A DNA stretch of 56,106 nucleotides, from positions 1-56,106 of the forward strand of contig CALQRA010000003.1 in assembly GCA_943332855.1 (NCBI GenBank). The letters run 5' to 3'. A program made the position numbers and the translations under genes. Of the stretch, positions 42,330 through 50,183 are shown piece by piece. Below the pieces are notes generated by a model. The model was not told the origin of the DNA and did no database searches. It saw nothing but the letters and a program-made list of their open reading frames with translations. Positions within the stretch are counted from its first letter, which is position 1. Each line of letters begins with the position of its first letter. This DNA is from Candidatus Kuenenia stuttgartensis. Lineage in GTDB: Bacteria; Planctomycetota; Planctomycetia; Pirellulales; UBA1268.

Positions 42330-44015
42330 ATGGCCGCCATCAACCGCACCAGTTCCCGGATCACGCAGCCCCGCTCGCAGGGCGCCTCGCAGGCCATGCT
42401 CCTCGGCACCGGCCTCCAGCCGGCCGACCTCGACAAGGCCCAGGTCGGGATCGCGAGCATGTGGTACGACGGGAACACCTGCAACATGCATCTCGGTGAG
42501 CTGGCGGCGGTCGTCAAGGAGGGGGTGACGGCTGCCGGCATGGTGGGGATGCGGTTCAACACCATCGGTGTCAGCGACGGGATCTCGATGGGGACCGACG
42601 GGATGAGCTTCTCGCTCCCCTCCCGCGACATCATCGCCGACTCGATCGAGACGGTGATGCAGGCCCAGTGGTACGACGGCATGGTGGCGATCCCCGGCTG
42701 CGACAAGAACATGCCCGGCTGTCTGATCGCGATGGGACGGCTCAATCGGCCGGCGTTGATGGTGTATGGCGGCACGATCCGGGCCGGCCACCTCGCCGAC
42801 GGCACGCCGCTCGACATCGTCTCGGCCTTCCAGTGCTACGGGGAATACGTCTCCGGGCGGATCGACGACACGCGCCGTGCGAGTGTCGTTCGTCAGGCCT
42901 GCCCCGGCGCCGGTGCCTGCGGCGGCATGTATACCGCCAACACCATGGCCACGGCGATCGAGGCCCTCGGCATGTCGCTTCCCGACAGCGCCAGCATCCC
43001 GGCGGTCGATCCAGCCAAGCTCGACGAATGCCGCCGAGCCGGTGCCGCGGTCAAGAACCTCCTCGAGCGTGACATCAAGCCCCGCGACATCATGACCCGC
43101 CGCGCCTTCGAAAACGCGATCGTGGTGACGATGGCCCTTGGCGGCTCGACGAACGCCGTCCTCCACCTCATCGCCATGGCCCGCGCCGTCGACGTCGAGC
43201 TCACGCCGGCCGACTTCCAGGCCGTCGCCCGCCGCATTCCCTACATCGCCGATTTGAAGCCGAGTGGCCGCTATGTCCAGGAGGATCTCCACGCCGTCGG
43301 CGGCACCAGCGGCTTCATGAAATACATGCTCGACAAGGGGCTCCTCGACGGCGACTGCCTCACCTGCACTGGAAAAACGCTGGCCGAGAACCTTGCCACG
43401 AACAAAGGCCTCACGCCGGGGCAGAAGGTGATCCATCCGCTCGAGGAGCCGATCAAGGCGACCGGCCACATCACGATCCTCCAGGGCAACCTCGCCCCCG
43501 GCACCGCCGTCGGGAAGATCACCGGCAAGGAAGGGGCCCGGTTCGAGGGGCCGGCCCGCGTCTTCGACAGCGAGGAGGCGATGCTCGCCGCCCTCGAGCA
43601 TGGAAAGATCCAGCGTGGCGACGTGATCATCATCCGCTATGAGGGGCCCAAGGGGGGCCCGGGGATGCCCGAGATGCTCACGCCGACCTCGGCCCTGATG
43701 GGCGCCGGCATGGGCAACGATGTGGCGCTGATCACCGACGGCCGCTTCTCCGGCGGCTCCCACGGCTTCATCGTTGGGCATGTCGTGCCAGAGGCGCAGG
43801 AAGGGGGAGCGATCGCGCTGGTCCACGATGGCGACATGGTGACGATCGACGGCGACAGCGGCCGCCTCGATGTTGCCGTCTCCGACGCCGATCTCGCCAA
43901 ACGCCGCGCTGCCTGGACCGCGCCGCCGCTGAAAGCCACGCGTGGGATCCTCGCCAAGTACATCCGCTGCGTCGCCCCGGCAAGCGAGGGCTGCGTCACC
44001 GACGAGCCGCGGTGA
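42330..44015 (+). CDS. ilvD: Dihydroxy-acid dehydratase
   Basis: 'CNMHL', 'VSDGISMG', 'PGCDKNMPG', '[16 protein letters not shown]', '[10 protein letters not shown]', 'GPGMPEML', 'TDGRFSG'. Confidence 0.96.
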
Positions 44016-44201
44016 CGGGGGGCGGGTTTCGCCCAATCTTCAGGATTGCGGTGCTGGGATAAGGCCTGTGGGTGGTTCGTCGGCGGGGCCGGCAAAAGTT
44101 TCGTCGTTTCTCGGAGGACCTCGTCACTCCTCAAGCGTTCGCCGATCCCCGCCTCGCCTGCGCGTTGTCAAGAAGCGGCCCGCTGTGACGCTCTGCAGCG
44201 A

Positions 44202-44333
44202 GGGGTCGCCCGTGTTCCGAGAGCCGGCGTAGGATGCGAGCGCAGCCATGGATGGCGGAGCGAAGCAGGCTCCGAGAGAGCGGCGGCCACGAAGGCCGAC
44301 GCGAACGTCCGGCGACGGGGCACGGGCGACCCC
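44202..44333. mobile_element. MITE-like element A (132 bp, 13-bp perfect terminal inverted repeats)
   Basis: GGGGTCGCCCGTG (44202-14) ... CACGGGCGACCCC (44321-33). Contains GCCATGGATGGC at 44245-56, is homologous to 48929-49064, and is flanked by GA on both sides. Confidence 0.65.
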
Positions 44334-44370
44334 GAAGCCACGCTTGAGCCTGAATCGCTCCCGCCCGAGG

Positions 44371-45555
44371 CTATCTCGGTGCTGGCAGCGGGAGCGACTC
44401 GATCGGCACGGGGGGCCCGGGGGCGACGAGGGCGCCGGGGGGGAGTTGGTCGGGGCGGAGGGGGGCTCCGTAGACCGGGCCTGTCGGCAGCGGGGCGGCA
44501 CTCGTCGTGCTGGCAGCCGGGCCGGGGAGCGTGGCGGGGAGGCCGGTGGCGGGATCGGCGGCTTGGTAGGCGGGGCCGGCCTGTGGCACCGGCGCCACGC
44601 CGAGCCGGCCGAGGATTATGCCGAGCATCTTCTGCTCGAGGAGCGGGTCGCGGCCGAGGGGGATCCAGCCGAGGTTCGGCGTCGGATTGGCGACGGGCCG
44701 CGGCTGGTCGCCGACCTGCTGGCCGAGCGTGGGGAGCGGTGTGCCGTAGCGGTAAAGCGAATCGTCGTTGCGAAACGACGCCCCGCCGGCGGTGGCCCGC
44801 ATCGGCCGGGAAAGGTTTTCGAGCTCCTTGAGCACCACCGTCTCGACCCGCCACCCGGATGGATCGGGGATCAGCCGCATTGAGCCCGAGCGGCGGATCG
44901 ACTGGAGCGTCGATTCGAGCCGCTCACGGAAGCCGACCGAATCGCCGCGCCACGGCTCGAGGAGCGTCGCGCCGGTCTGCGGGTAGGTGTCGATCCGCCC
45001 CTCGGCCGGGATGCCATTGGCAAACACGACGCGCTGCTCCGACTGGATCTTGAAGAAGTCGTCCATCGTATCGACCATCTGCTGCCAGACGACCTCGGCA
45101 TCGAGTGGCGGGATGACGACGCTGTTGCTTTGGGTCAGCGGCGGGCCGGACGCGACCTGGCCACCGGGGCCGATGACCGCGCCGGGGGGGAGCGGCGCGA
45201 AGGGGTCGGGGGACGTTGTCGGCGAGGAGAATCCGGGGAACGGGAAGAGGGGCGTCGGCGGCGGCGGGGGGAGCGGCTGTACGATGCCAGGGAGCGTTCC
45301 GGCCGGCACGGTGGCAGCGGGGGGAACGGCTGGAAGAGGCGAGACCATCGGCGCGGGCAATGTCTGGCCGGGGGCTGGGAGTTGGAGCGTGGGGACGACT
45401 GCGCCGTAGGGAGCGGCGGCGGGGGGAAGCGGCGCCTGGGCCAGGACCGTGGGCGACGCGAGCACCATGGCCGTCATGGCCAGCGCCACGGCGAGCGCAG
45501 GGAGGCGCGGAAGGAAGGCAAACAGCCGGTGGGCGGGGCGTGGCATCGGCGGCAT
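44371..45555 (-). CDS. Secreted Pro-rich hypothetical protein with a conserved-looking core domain
   Basis: Signal peptide and Pro/Ala-rich flanks. The core 'WQQMVDTMDDFFKIQSEQRV...EGRIDTYPQTGATLLEPWRGDS...ERLESTLQSIRR' resembles a planctomycete-type family. Confidence 0.7.
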   Translation of the reverse strand: MPPMPRPAHRLFAFLPRLPALAVALAMTAMVLASPTVLAQAPLPPAAAPYGAVVPTLQLPAPGQTLPAPMVSPLPAVPPAATVPAGTLPGIVQPLPPPPPTPLFPFPGFSSPTTSPDPFAPLPPGAVIGPGGQVASGPPLTQSNSVVIPPLDAEVVWQQMVDTMDDFFKIQSEQRVVFANGIPAEGRIDTYPQTGATLLEPWRGDSVGFRERLESTLQSIRRSGSMRLIPDPSGWRVETVVLKELENLSRPMRATAGGASFRNDDSLYRYGTPLPTLGQQVGDQPRPVANPTPNLGWIPLGRDPLLEQKMLGIILGRLGVAPVPQAGPAYQAADPATGLPATLPGPAASTTSAAPLPTGPVYGAPLRPDQLPPGALVAPGPPVPIESLPLPAPR

Positions 45556-45618: not shown

Positions 45619-47823
45619 TCAAGCCCAGTTCCGGCCGCGTCGCCGGCGGATCGCACGGATCGCCAGCGCCATTCCAAACCCGATCGCGCAGATCACACCG
45701 AGGCCCAAGCCGGTGGGCACCCAGACCTTTTCGCGGAAAGCCTCGGCGGGGGTGGAGGCCGAACGTGGCTCCGACTCGAGGACCGGAAACCGGGGCGACG
45801 GGGCGGGCTCGGTTGGATGGGAGAGATCCTGGGGCGACGCTGGCCCGAGCTCGGCCTCGGCCTGCGGCAGTGTTGGCTGCAGAGGCAATTCGCGTTTGGT
45901 CGTCATGTCGCGGACCATTGCTTCACGTTGGCTCCCGTTTCTGATGGCCATCACGACCAGGGGAATGGCCAGAGCCCCCGCGATTGCCGCGATCACCAGA
46001 AGACGCATCGCTCGATAGTCGACGCGCGGGCCGGCCCCGTTCCAGCGATCTGACGGTGGACGGCGCCGATCCTTCTGGCCGAGCGCCTCGCCAAACACCC
46101 CGGCGATGCTGTCGGCGTCGCGACCTCGCCCTCCCCTTCCCTGCCGATGGGCGCGGAGGATGGCGCGGACTTCACCGGCGTCGAGGTTGAGCTCGCGGGC
46201 GATATCGGTGACGGTCTGCTCGCCGAGGAGATCGTGGCCACTGGCCTCGAGCGCCGCGGCCCGGTCGAGCACGCCGTCGAAGCGCGCGTCAGCTGCTGCT
46301 CCTCGTTCGCGAGCGGCCGTCGGCGTCGCCCGCCGGTGCCAGGGAGCGGCATCGGGCAGTGGCGGCGGGGCCGCGGGGCCCATCGGGGGCATGAACCGGA
46401 GATCGGTCGTTGCGCCGGCGGCTGCGGGCAGGCCCGCGAGGGTGGCGGCGGCCGATGCGGCCGAGCGGAACCGCTCGGCGGGATCGGGCTTGAGGAGTCT
46501 GTCGAGCCAGGCGGCGACGTCGGCCGGAAGGTCGGGGCACACCGAACCAATCGGCGGGACCGTCTCGGTCGTGATTTTCCGGAGGAGCTTGAGGGGGCTC
46601 GAGGCCGACAGCGGCGGATGACCGGTGAGCATTTCGTGGAGCGTGGCGCCAAGGCTGTAGAGATCGCTCGACGGAGTGGCCTCGTCGCCGAGGGCGACTT
46701 CCGGCGCGAGGTAGGTGAGCGTGCCGAGGAGCGAGCCCGAGGCGGTGAGCGTGTGCTGTCGATCGGGGCTGCGGGCGAGGCCGAAATCGGTGAGCTTGTA
46801 GGTGCCGGCGGCGGGGCCGGTCGTGGCGAGGAGAATGTTTGCCGGCTTGATGTCGCGGTGGACGATCCCCGCCGCGTGGGCGGTGGCGAGCCCGTCGAGG
46901 ACCTGCAGCGCGCAGTCGATCACCGTCGCCGCCGGGATCGCCCCCCTCCCCTTCACCATCTGCTGGAGGCTCGCCCCCGGCACGAGCTCCATCGCCAGGA
47001 ATGGCAGCCTGGCGGCCGGGTCGAACTCATAGATCTGGACGATGTGGGGAGAGGCGAGCGACGCAGCAGCGCGGGCCTCTTCGCCGAAGCGGCCAAGCGC
47101 CCCCGCATCCTCCCCCGGCAGCGGTCGAATCACTTTCACAGCAGCGTCGCGGTGCAGCGCCTCGTCGCGGCCGCGGTAGACCGTCCCCATGCCGCCGCGA
47201 CCGAGCTCGCCAACGATCCGGTAGCGGCCGATGCGTTGCGGGCCGGGGCCCGGGGCGCTCCATGAAGCGGCTCGGTCGAAAGCCCCCGGCACATCGTGGC
47301 GGATCTCGTCAAGCGAGCGGGCGAAACGGCCAAGCGACCGCCGGGCATGATCGGTGTGGAGGAAAGCGGCCAGGCAATAAAGAATCAAACCGGGGGCGAC
47401 GCCGGTGAACAGCGTGGCCAAGACGACGAGGAGTCGGACCGGAGCCACCGGCACATCGAGCCGGGCCGCGAGTCTCCGGCAGACGCCGAGGAGGACGGGC
47501 CCGCGATCGGTCGTAGCGAAGCCTGGAGAGGAGTCTTCGGGGGGGCTGTCAGACCACGACATCACCACCCCCGCGGCAAGATAAAGGAGCACGCCGGGGA
47601 GGATCCCCGTGAACAGCGTGATCAGCGCGACGAGGAACCGGACGCCACGCACGGGGACGTCGAGGCTTCTCGCCAGACGCGCGCAGACGCCGAGGAAGCA
47701 CGAACTCCGTGACGGCGCCAGCGCGACGCCCGCGAGGGCCATCGCCACGGTGGAGATCACCCCGAACGACATCAGGGTGATCGCCCCGACGCCGAAGAGA
47801 ACGAGAAGCTCGAGGATTCCCAT
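45619..47823 (-). CDS. PspC-PspC-Ser/Thr kinase fusion membrane protein
   Basis: Two PspC-like repeats ('FLGVCARLARSLDVPVRGVRFL...PGVLLYL', 'LLGVCRRLAARLDVPVAPVRLL...PGLILYC'), an intact Hanks kinase (GRGGMG, AVK, HRDIKPAN, DFG, APE, SDLYSLG), then two further hydrophobic helices. Confidence 0.88.
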   Translation of the reverse strand: MGILELLVLFGVGAITLMSFGVISTVAMALAGVALAPSRSSCFLGVCARLARSLDVPVRGVRFLVALITLFTGILPGVLLYLAAGVVMSWSDSPPEDSSPGFATTDRGPVLLGVCRRLAARLDVPVAPVRLLVVLATLFTGVAPGLILYCLAAFLHTDHARRSLGRFARSLDEIRHDVPGAFDRAASWSAPGPGPQRIGRYRIVGELGRGGMGTVYRGRDEALHRDAAVKVIRPLPGEDAGALGRFGEEARAAASLASPHIVQIYEFDPAARLPFLAMELVPGASLQQMVKGRGAIPAATVIDCALQVLDGLATAHAAGIVHRDIKPANILLATTGPAAGTYKLTDFGLARSPDRQHTLTASGSLLGTLTYLAPEVALGDEATPSSDLYSLGATLHEMLTGHPPLSASSPLKLLRKITTETVPPIGSVCPDLPADVAAWLDRLLKPDPAERFRSAASAAATLAGLPAAAGATTDLRFMPPMGPAAPPPLPDAAPWHRRATPTAARERGAAADARFDGVLDRAAALEASGHDLLGEQTVTDIARELNLDAGEVRAILRAHRQGRGGRGRDADSIAGVFGEALGQKDRRRPPSDRWNGAGPRVDYRAMRLLVIAAIAGALAIPLVVMAIRNGSQREAMVRDMTTKRELPLQPTLPQAEAELGPASPQDLSHPTEPAPSPRFPVLESEPRSASTPAEAFREKVWVPTGLGLGVICAIGFGMALAIRAIRRRRGRNWA

Positions 47824-47824
47824 G

Positions 47825-48100
47825 TCAGATGCGATCCGTGGTGGCGGGGAGGACGCAGCCGAGGATCAGATACGCCACGAGCCCCGGGCCGATGCCCGAG
47901 AGAAAAATCGCCGCCACGGCGAGGATCCGGACGGCGAGCACCGGCAGCCCCTGCCGGCGGGCCAGCCGCCAGCAGACGCCGAGGCAGCGGGGCCCGGGGC
48001 GCGACGGCCAGGCCGACAGAAGCGCGGGCAGGACGATCGCCGCCACCGCCGCGTAGACGACGATCTCGAAGAAGCCGAACATGCCGAGGAGCGGAGTCAT
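47825..48100 (-). CDS. pspC: PspC-domain membrane protein
   Basis: N-terminal TM helix, then 'CLGVCWRLARRQGLPVLAVRILAV...GIGPGLVAYLILGCVLP'; lies between pspA and the kinase. Confidence 0.75.
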   Translation of the reverse strand: MTPLLGMFGFFEIVVYAAVAAIVLPALLSAWPSRPGPRCLGVCWRLARRQGLPVLAVRILAVAAIFLSGIGPGLVAYLILGCVLPATTDRI

Positions 48101-48157: not shown

Positions 48158-48829
48158 TCAGTTCGCCGCCGGTCGCCGCGGTTCCCGCTTCAGCCGAGCC
48201 AATTCCTCCTCGATCGCGTCTGATTCCTTGAGGGCCGCAAACGCCTCCTCGAGCGACGGCTTCTGAAGATCGGGATCGATCTCCTGAAAAGCCTCCATCC
48301 GCTCGATCCGCTGCTCGAGCTGGTCGAACTTCGTCACCGCATCGTACCGGGTGACGCGCTCGATCACTCCCCGGGTGCGCTCGTGCGTCTTGGCACGCTT
48401 GTGCCTCTGGACGAGGAGCCGGTGACGCTGACGGGCATCGACGAGCTTCGCCTCGACCGCGCCGATGTCCTCCTTGTAGCGGGCGACGACCTCGTCACAG
48501 CCAGACACCTCCTTGGCATGGGCGTCGCGGAGTTCCTCGAGCCGGCGCCGCTCGCGGATCGCCTCCCGGGCGAGGTCTTCGCGCCCTTTCTCGATCGCGA
48601 GCCGCGCCCGCTCTTCCCAGGTGGCTGTTCCTGACTCGGCCGTGGCCACGGCCCGCTCGGCCCGCTTCCGGGCGGCGATAGCGCCGGCGCAGTTGGCCTT
48701 CACCTCAACGAGCGTGTCTTCCATCTCCTGGATCATCAGCCGGATCAGCTTGTCGGGATCCTCGGCCGCGTCGAGCATCGAATTGAGGTTGGAGTTGATG
48801 ATGTCCTTGAGTCGCGTGAAGACACCCAT
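48158..48829 (-). CDS. pspA: Phage shock protein A (PspA/IM30)
   Basis: 'MGVFTRLKDIINSNLNSMLDAAEDPDKLIRLMIQEMEDTLVEVK', 'KGREDLAREA', 'KFDQLEQRIERME', 'IEEELARLK'. Confidence 0.95.
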   Translation of the reverse strand: MGVFTRLKDIINSNLNSMLDAAEDPDKLIRLMIQEMEDTLVEVKANCAGAIAARKRAERAVATAESGTATWEERARLAIEKGREDLAREAIRERRRLEELRDAHAKEVSGCDEVVARYKEDIGAVEAKLVDARQRHRLLVQRHKRAKTHERTRGVIERVTRYDAVTKFDQLEQRIERMEAFQEIDPDLQKPSLEEAFAALKESDAIEEELARLKREPRRPAAN

Positions 48830-48876
48830 GGGAAAGGCTCCTGGCCAAGGGGGGGTGGGTTGATGGACGGATGAGA

Positions 48877-48893
48877 TGCACGTGGCGTGCCGA
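48877..48893 (-). promoter_or_regulatory. Sigma54 (-24/-12) promoter of pspA
   Basis: Minus strand TCGGCACGCCACGTGCA = GG-N10-GC, close to the consensus TGGCACG-N4-TTGC; 48 nt above the pspA ATG and adjacent to a divergent bEBP gene. Confidence 0.85.
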
Positions 48894-48928
48894 AGGCGTG
48901 TCGGGGAGTCGCTGTCTGGCGGACGGTC

Positions 48929-49064
48929 GGGGGGACGCCCCTGCGCCTCGCCGGACGCTCGCTTCGGCCATCCATGGCTTCTCGCTCGCTCGACGCCGGC
49001 CGCGCTTCGCCCTCCTATCCTGCGCTTGCCGACGGCGCCGCCTCGGCTGCAGGGACGTCCCCCC
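48929..49064. mobile_element. MITE-like element B (136 bp, 16-bp terminal inverted repeats with 1 mismatch)
   Basis: GGGGGGACGCCCCTGC ... GCAGGGACGTCCCCCC. Contains GCCATCCATGGC, its left ~50 nt align with the reverse complement of element A, and it is flanked by TC on both sides. Confidence 0.65.
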
Positions 49065-49100
49065 TCCCTGGCAACACGAAGAAGTGGAAAGAGAACTGTG

Positions 49101-49154
49101 TGGTTAAAATTGCCAGGTATGGCAGAATATGCCTTGGATTGGTTTTTATGACCT
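49101..49154. promoter_or_regulatory. Three candidate PspF upstream activator sites
   Basis: TGGTTAAAATTGCCA (49101), TGGCAGAATATGCCT (49120) and TGGTTTTTATGACCT (49140): all TGG-N9-CCW with AT-rich cores, spaced 19-20 bp. Confidence 0.65.
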
Positions 49155-49175
49155 TTTTTCCCGGGGAGTGCTCTC

Positions 49176-50183
49176 TTGCGTGTCGAAGAGGCGATCGGTC
49201 GCTCGGAAGCGTTCCTGGCGTTCACGGAGCGGCTCTCCCGGGCCGCGGCCGTCGATCGGCCGGTCCTGCTGATTGGCGAGCGGGGGACCGGCAAGGAGCT
49301 GGCAGCGGCCAAGCTTCACTACCTCTCGCGGCGCTGGGAGGGGCCCTTGGTGGCCCTCAATTGCGCGGCGCTGGTGCCGGCGCTGGTCGAGGCGGAGCTC
49401 TTCGGGCACGAACAGGGGGCGTTCACCGGCGCCACCCGGGAGCGGGCGGGGAGGTTTGAGGCGGCCGATGGCGGCACGCTCCTCCTCGACGAAATAGGCC
49501 TGGTGCCACTCGAGGCCCAGGAAAAGCTCCTCCGGGTCGTGGAGTATGGCACGTTCGAGCGGGTGGGGAGCTCGCGGCCGATGCGGGTCGACGTCCGCAT
49601 CGTCGCCGCCACCAACGCCGATCTCCCCGCCCTCGCCCGGGCCGGGCGTTTCAAAGAGGATCTCCTCGACCGGCTGTCGTTCGAGGTCCTCCGTGTGCCG
49701 CCGCTCCGCGAGCGGCGGGAAGACATTGCCATCCTCGCCAGGCACTTCGCCGGCCGGATGGGGCGCGAGGTCGGGGGTGATGCGGCGCCGGAGCTCACCC
49801 CTGAGGCGCGCGCGAAGCTCGACGCCCACCCTTGGCCGGGCAACATCCGCGAACTCAAAAACGTTGTCGAGCGGGCGGTTCACCGGGCCGACGGGGGGCC
49901 GGTGGGCGCCGACTCCGTCGACTTCGATCCCTTTCGGCGCCCCGGTGAGCCGGTCGCCGGGCCAACCAGTGGCCCTTCTTCAGTCGATCCGCCGGCGGTG
50001 CCAGGCCGCCCCACGCTCCCATCGTCGCTGCCCGAGGCGGTCGCCAGTCTCGAGATCGAGGCCCTCCGGGGCGCCCTCCGGGCCACCCGTCACCATCAGC
50101 GGAAGGCGGCCGCGCTCCTCGGCCTCAGCTACCATCAGTTTCGTGGCCTGTTCCGCAAGCATGCGGCGCAGCTCGAGGAATGA
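49176..50183 (+). CDS. pspF: Psp operon transcriptional activator (sigma54 bEBP lacking a receiver domain)
   Basis: '[11 protein letters not shown]', '[15 protein letters not shown]', 'LLLDEIG', '[14 protein letters not shown]', PspF-type HTH '[19 protein letters not shown]'; no N-terminal sensor; divergent from pspA. Confidence 0.93.

Follow-up and report, generated by a model that had tools for sequence, protein, structure and literature searches.

A structured repeat between the candidate activator sites and the sigma-54-type promoter of a planctomycete psp locus: probably an old insertion and not a phase-tuned spacer

The window, a stretch of 56,106 nucleotides, belongs to the genome of a freshwater member of the Pirellulales, available as a metagenome-assembled 4.9-Mb draft of 361 contigs that is 91% complete. 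It contains a phage-shock locus of the E. coli type, in which pspA and pspF are divergently oriented and separated by an intergenic region of 346 bp. pspA is the first gene of a string that continues with a pspC-like gene and a gene for a PspC-domain kinase. The product of pspF is a sigma-54 activator that consists of an AAA+ domain and an HTH and lacks an N-terminal receiver domain. Its start codon is TTG, and ATG or GTG stands at the aligned position in the orthologs. The features of the locus, together with a second repeat copy within the window, are listed below; G010 is a species of the same genus whose psp spacer is described further on.

44202 to 44333, minus strand: second repeat copy, between the convergent ilvD gene and a gene for a secreted protein, flanked by other repeat modules
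48161 to 48829, minus strand: pspA (PspA/IM30); PF04012 with E = 3e-40, TIGR02977 with 236.7 bits, just below the cut-off of 242.95
48877 to 48892, minus strand: sigma-54 type -24/-12 box of pspA, CGGCACGCCACGTGCA, with GG and GC 12 nt apart and 10 of 12 consensus positions
48893 to 48928, no strand: left spacer from promoter to element, GC-rich and fast-evolving, aligning to the left side of the empty site in G010
48929 to 49064, plus strand: palindromic repeat copy of 136 bp (the 'A-type' psp copy), identified by terminal inverted repeats, fold and family membership
49065 to 49100, no strand: right spacer from element to activator site 1; its CCCTGGCAACA aligns to CCTTGGCAGCA, the right side of the empty site in G010
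49101 to 49115, no strand: candidate PspF site 1, TGGTTAAAATTGCCA, centre at about -242; its TGG-N9-CCA palindrome is kept in all orthologs and in the outgroup genus
49120 to 49134, no strand: candidate PspF site 2, TGGCAGAATATGCCT, centre at about -261, 19 bp after site 1 in every ortholog
49140 to 49154, no strand: candidate PspF site 3, TGGTTTTTATGACCT, centre at about -281, 20 bp after site 2 in every ortholog
49176 to 50183, plus strand: pspF; PF00158 with E = 5e-59, TIGR02974 with 443.8 bits against a cut-off of 443.55 (passed)

The site centres were computed with the pspA +1 placed at about 48866. The GC-N7-GTGCC core of the box is kept in all orthologous loci, 60-72 nt from the pspA ATG. 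All three sites are TGG-N9-CC(A/T)-like and dyad-like, and their 19- and 20-bp spacing is invariant in all orthologs. Since both the box and the three sites recur in every orthologous locus, we refer to them as promoter and enhancer. Site 3 lies 34-43 nt before the pspF start across the orthologs, where it overlaps the likely promoter region of pspF. The genome also contains rpoN. The correctly spaced box upstream of pspA and the presence of both rpoN and pspF point to a PspF-dependent sigma-54 promoter, and we infer that PspF binds at the three conserved dyad-like sites.

The psp operon extends downstream of pspA (window positions 45619-48100) to genes for a 91-aa PspC-domain protein and then for a 734-aa protein, in which two PspC-like membrane segments are joined to a Ser/Thr protein kinase domain. 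The latter is an unusual output or sensor partner for the Psp system.

In E. coli, the pspF-pspA region comprises two UAS, an IHF site, a sigma-54 promoter and a divergent, autoregulated pspF (PMC3709507). The planctomycete locus resembles it in the divergent arrangement of pspF and pspA, the activator without a receiver domain, the -24/-12 promoter and the multiple (candidate) activator sites overlapping the pspF promoter side. It differs in having three candidate sites instead of two and in their distance from the -24 box, which is 210 bp here in comparison to within about 130 bp in E. coli. Furthermore, no IHF site is recognisable, and two thirds of the spacer between enhancer and promoter are filled by the 136-bp repeat.

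An earlier note, written from the letters of the window, had described an inverted-repeat element lying wholly between the sigma-54 box and activator sites at about -242, -261 and -281. Coordinates and positions are correct, and the element is real. Its arms (48929-48944 and 49049-49064) are 16 nt each, 104 nt apart and, with one mismatch, 94% complementary. As single-stranded DNA, the element folds with -37.4 kcal/mol (z = -2.4), a stability equalled by 1 of 200 shuffles. Searches of the same genome by blastn and with an nhmmer profile returned about 26 full-length and about 10 partial copies, far more than chance would produce. Thus, the element is not specific to the psp locus but one of about 36 copies in the genome.

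Throughout the genome, the repeat is 132-136 bp long, with 126-134 bp between its terminal motifs, and the consensus termini read GGGGTCGCCCGTGC...GCACGGGCGACCCC. The dinucleotide TC stands outside both arms in every copy. The empty psp site of G010 reads TG there, and a duplication of TC would be indistinguishable from a TC belonging to the element itself. The arms are the most variable part of the repeat, yet they are still complementary, and the interior is conserved. Double compensatory changes were found in 13 of 24 consensus pairs, including those of an internal hairpin (GGCC...GGCC versus GGGC...GCCC). The consensus of the whole element folds into a closing stem with internal hairpins in a three-way arrangement; its two halves are loosely inverse-similar, and no short REP unit was defined.

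The majority of copies follow the 3' end of a gene or are situated between convergent genes, in many cases next to further repeat modules, and only two are placed between divergent genes. None of the other copies among the approximately 36 lies within 400 bp of a sigma-54-like box. A general association of the repeat family with sigma-54 promoters was therefore rejected, as the psp copy is the only one near such a box.

Several observations were made on copies elsewhere in the genome. Downstream of ilvD (window positions 44013-44370), the second copy forms a mosaic with the modules GGTTCGTCGGCGGGGCCGGCAAAAGTTTCGTC and CTCAAGCGTTCGCCGATCCCCGCCTCGCC, both of which recur beside many copies genome-wide in a BIME-like arrangement. 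At position 3560-3600 of contig C147, only a 10-nt arm remnant, GCTTCGGGGCGGCCCTCAC, is left where G010 (locus L286, contig C3) holds a full copy with a short tandem array of GGGGTGAGGCTTCG units in front of it; this is a further example of footprint-type loss. Many contigs of the draft end in or beside a repeat copy (C1:1-52, C140, C164, C43, C269, C202, C192 and C302). The count of copies is consequently too low, with the repeat among the main reasons for breaks in the assembly.

Of 61 genomes belonging to the same taxonomic family, 52 carry the repeat, at about 80% identity and covering 11 of 12 genera; all 67 genomes taken from 29 further families of the order lack it. It did not match any Rfam family at E <= 10 on 48700-49300, and on 44000-44500 the sole hit was a sub-threshold chance match to CRISPR-DR20 (19.9 bits against a gathering threshold of 42). 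No known RNA family was thus found for either window copy among the curated Rfam models, and a plasmid origin was rejected as blastn gave no match in PLSDB.

A Y1 transposase gene (PF01797) is absent from the 91%-complete draft. Three species of the genus encode one near-identical 244-aa HUH/Y1 transposase-like gene (L251-L253, at G008:C12, G002:C23 and G007:C18), and no repeat copy was detected within about 1.5 kb of it (E <= 10) in any of the three genomes; this gene behaves like a domesticated or host gene and not like an active insertion sequence. Mobilisation by a RAYT or TIRYT was rejected on these grounds, namely no Y1 gene in the genome itself and no element flanking the Y1 gene of the congeners. 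To look for a parent insertion sequence, matches to the 14-nt terminus in the draft, in which up to 2 mismatches were allowed, were paired in inverted orientation. The 18 pairs found 126-134 bp apart are the elements themselves, and all wider pairings involve loose 14-mer matches or solo termini. An autonomous insertion sequence with the same termini was rejected because no transposase-sized element was identified among the pairs, an absence that in a 91%-complete draft is not proof.

Being multi-copy and structured, with no match in Rfam or among plasmids and no mobilising gene found, the element is therefore assigned to the small, non-coding, multi-copy repeats with terminal inverted repeats, as a MITE/REP/ERIC-like family. 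MITE-type repeats of bacteria include Correia/NEMIS of Neisseria, the 127-bp ERIC/IRU of enterobacteria and the 168-bp YPAL/RU-2 of Yersinia (Delihas 2008, PMC2229807). With these, the present repeat shares a non-coding nature, a length below 200 bp, terminal inverted repeats, the potential to form a long stem-loop, tens of intergenic copies and filled and empty sites between relatives. Like Correia elements, copies can land in promoter regions and, like YPAL, the repeat is not AT-rich and has no TA ends. In contrast to MITE-type repeats, its termini are GC-rich (GGGG...CCCC) instead of TA, the arms are the most variable yet complementary part around a conserved interior, and no clear target-site duplication is visible beyond the invariant TC on both sides. 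Neither a partner insertion sequence nor an IHF consensus was found.

A second group for comparison comprises REP/BIME/REPIN with their RAYT and the TIR repeats with TIRYT tyrosine transposases (Di Nocera 2013, PMC3733652). Similar to REP/BIME, the repeat is palindromic and extragenic, enriched after genes and between convergent genes, and often found in mosaic clusters with other modules. The TIRs of TIRYTs share GGGGWSAS (PMC3733652), which is close to GGGGTCGC of the present repeat. Unlike in REP/RAYT systems, PF01797 is missing here and the single Y1 gene of the congeners is not flanked by the element; unlike a REP, the unit measures about 136 bp with a three-way fold and is not a 20-40-bp hairpin or a simple doublet.

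Orthologous psp loci were collected from twelve congeneric genomes and from genome or metagenome contigs, yielding thirteen architectures. The distance from the -24 box to the start of activator site 1 is given for each locus below.

G010: 79 bp, no element, AT-rich spacer
L067 (outgroup genus): 79 bp, no element
L144: 99 bp, footprint only
L146: 203 bp, degenerate copy
Window locus, G003, G014 and L141: 209-210 bp, one copy
L145: 214 bp, one copy
G013, G008 and L147: 220-221 bp, one copy
G011: 249 bp, copy inverted
L142: 284 bp, copy with extra DNA and a solo arm
G012: 329 bp, 1.8 copies
L143: 368 bp, two full copies

Across the loci, distances of 79, 99, 203, 209, 210, 214, 220, 221, 249, 284, 329 and 368 bp were thus recorded. 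When the flanks of the element in the window are joined, they align to G010 over the insertion point (...ACGG(TC) followed by (TC)CCTGGCAACA, in comparison to ...ACGGAAGTG CCTTGGCAGCA), which identifies G010 as the unoccupied site. The earlier note had regarded the element as an insertion, and the empty-site allele in this one species of the genus bears that out. It had also proposed that removal of the element would bring the activator sites into the usual range of bacterial enhancer-binding proteins (bEBPs). This agrees with the 79-bp spacers of G010 and of the outgroup genus, which put the centre of site 1 at about -111. The usual bEBP enhancer range includes a site centre at about -111. 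With G010 unoccupied, the ancestral geometry is typical for a bEBP promoter.

The footprint allele L144 was considered as a pre-insertion target and rejected in this role. Its flanks are homologous to those of G013 and G008 on both sides, and of the arms it keeps only GGGGCAGC and CCCC after a deletion of 120-121 bp. The 12 nt that are left match the B-type-specific arm at 11 of 12 positions, and the allele is therefore a deletion remnant. In a further MAG contig (L064, CAJAYZ010000277.1), the sequence beyond pspA and a B-type element is unrelated and stands in place of enhancer and pspF, owing either to a genuine rearrangement at the repeat or to chimeric joining during assembly.

The relationships among copies were studied in a tree of 75 repeat copies. 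Those at psp in the window, G003, L141, L147, G011 and G012 are united in an exclusive clade (100/99 support) on a long stem, also when the best non-psp copies of G011, G012, G006 and others are added; these are the A-type copies. As the inverted copy of G011 falls within this clade, it represents the same insertion turned in place. Loci of the A-type are found on both sides of the deepest supported split in the pspA tree, which indicates that the psp insertion is old. The B-type psp copies (G013, G008, G014, L142, L143, L145 and L064) are near the family consensus, carry the usual flank modules of the family and look like a replacement or conversion of an older psp copy. A single origin of all A-type and B-type psp copies was not rejected (AU p = 0.38); two independent insertions, one for each type, are conceivable as well. 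Elsewhere in the genome, the copy on contig C270 and its positional ortholog in G010 (contig C55) come from different subfamilies; copy replacement seems common in the repeat family. The ilvD-side copy of the window shows a different history, with an empty orthologous site in G010, G011 and G012 and a footprint in G013, from which we read it as a young insertion already lost in G013.

Taken together, the psp element is probably an old, locus-fixed copy of a structured non-coding repeat of one freshwater Pirellulales family, which was inserted and is not phase-tuned. In the ancestor of most of the genus, one copy would have been inserted into a short, AT-rich spacer of about 79 bp between PspF sites and promoter, shifting the three sites from about -111, -130 and -150 to about -242, -261 and -281. 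The insertion may have persisted because bEBP activation of the sigma-54 holoenzyme, which proceeds by DNA looping, would tolerate the added distance. The spacer would later have changed in several ways, by in-situ inversion, by partial and full tandem duplication, by replacement with a consensus-like copy and by an internal deletion leaving a 12-nt footprint. 

It is conceivable, if rather unlikely, that the element was taken into the psp control region once inserted and works there at the DNA level, as a co-opted architectural module. In such a role, it might offer a nucleoid or IHF-like protein a binding platform or, as a structure-prone spacer, aid formation of the loop; in both cases it could take the place of the AT-rich, bendable spacer of element-free relatives. 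Conservation in situ speaks for this idea. The orthologous psp copies are 81-90% identical at a constant length of 135-136 bp (window copy versus L147 88%, versus G012 81%, versus G011 84%). In the same three comparisons, identity is 42-67% in the adjoining spacers, which also have indels, and 64-72% in the 54-nt enhancer; 4-fold degenerate sites in pspA and pspF show 57-68%. Among six orthologous psp copies, five or six stem pairs are changed on both sides and few are broken. Compensatory changes in its stems are found even though the element, situated upstream of both divergent promoters, is not expected to be transcribed. Since conservation of the psp copies exceeds that of their flanks and of synonymous sites, as would not be expected of a neutral passenger, and their stems change in a compensatory manner, there is still room for a co-opted architectural role.

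Additional observations fit such a role. An AT-rich tract (14-15 of 20 nt) occurs only in element-free spacers and is missing from all element-bearing ones. Together with the in-situ conservation, this tract is a hint that bears on the suggestion of the earlier note that the internal hairpins may replace an IHF-type bend. The psp copy was retained across the deepest split of the genus, in contrast to the ilvD-side copy, which turned over quickly. The genome encodes an IHF-like protein of the HU family (contig C55, 16632-16898), and a functional IHF site within a 155-bp Correia element provides a precedent (PMC2229807). On the other hand, the footprint allele L144 has neither the element nor the AT-rich tract, and the psp copy is the only one of about 36 near a sigma-54 box. 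None of 16 spacers contains a match to the IHF consensus WATCAANNNNTTR at 8 or more of its 9 positions; this consensus is of the E. coli type and may not be that of the host protein. The element is moreover reversed in orientation in G011 and present in 0, 1, 1.8 or 2 copies among the loci.

The conservation itself can be read in another way. The whole family is about 80% conserved even between genera, so that conversion, from copy to copy and from arm to arm, may explain it, and positional orthologs at other loci belong to different subfamilies. The in-situ conservation therefore fits either an acquired role at the DNA level or a non-selective upkeep by arm-to-arm and copy-to-copy conversion. 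The inversion, the variation in copy number and a footprint allele that looks viable all speak against the element being strictly required. A fuller version, in which a selfish repeat would have been domesticated as the spacer of an enhancer-dependent promoter and kept in an untranscribed position by purifying and structure-preserving selection on the DNA, and would act as a protein-bound or structure-prone architectural element in place of an AT-rich, IHF-type bend, appears improbable to us to a similar degree.

The earlier note had further suggested that an insertion of 136-138 bp, or about 13 turns, was tolerated or selected because it holds enhancer and promoter on the same face of the DNA. 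The length of the element does correspond to 12.95 turns at 10.5 bp per turn, and the alleles of 209, 210, 220, 221, 284 and 368 bp are within 0.1 turn of one phase. However, the element has the family length at every locus, so that the approximately 13 turns are not a feature of the psp promoter. The real differences between alleles are 131 bp or 12.5 turns between the window locus and the empty G010, and 121 bp or 11.5 turns between the filled G013 and G008 and the footprint L144, both at 10.5 bp per turn. The alleles of 79, 99, 203, 214, 249 and 329 bp are off that phase. Over all thirteen architectures, the mean resultant length R was 0.14 for a helical repeat of 10.5 bp (Rayleigh p about 0.78), and the best R between 9.5 and 12 bp per turn, 0.48 at 10.0, was equalled by 42% of randomised sets. 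A mod-10 pattern that was apparent in the first six distances was gone with more loci.

In a post-hoc grouping at 10.5 bp per turn, the spacers of 209, 210, 220, 221, 284 and 368 bp are about in phase with each other, those of 79, 99, 203, 214 and 329 bp are about a third to half a turn off, and 249 bp belongs to neither group.

Toleration of the insertion agrees with loop-mediated, distance-tolerant activation of bEBP/sigma-54 systems, as in E. coli psp (PMC3709507), and this part of the suggestion would hold. The proposed preservation of helical phase is not supported, as the loci show no common phase, and we regard tuning of the element to the helical repeat as very unlikely. That the element acts as RNA at psp, as a leader, a terminator or a small RNA hairpin, would suit the strong conserved fold with covariation and the location of most family copies in probably transcribed 3' regions, but is scarcely credible at a position upstream of both divergent promoters, where the box at 48877-48892 points to the left and pspF starts 22 nt after site 3, with no Rfam family matching the element, no terminator-like or sigma-70-like matches in 48700-49300 and an inverted copy retained in G011.

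On the favoured reading, an old insertion of a family repeat, the event itself is ordinary, a small repeat having entered a promoter region. What is unusual is the location, which separates a bacterial enhancer from its sigma-54 promoter, and the lineage is one of uncultured planctomycetes. The genus provides a natural experiment, in which the distance between one promoter and its three conserved sites ranges from 79 to 368 bp and the element occurs in both orientations. This series shows how little the distance and phase between enhancer and promoter were held constant in evolution. If the conservation of the psp copies should reflect function, the locus would exemplify the co-option of a repeat element into promoter architecture, and the genus would hold a natural allelic series of it, comprising empty, footprint, one-copy, inverted and two-copy states.
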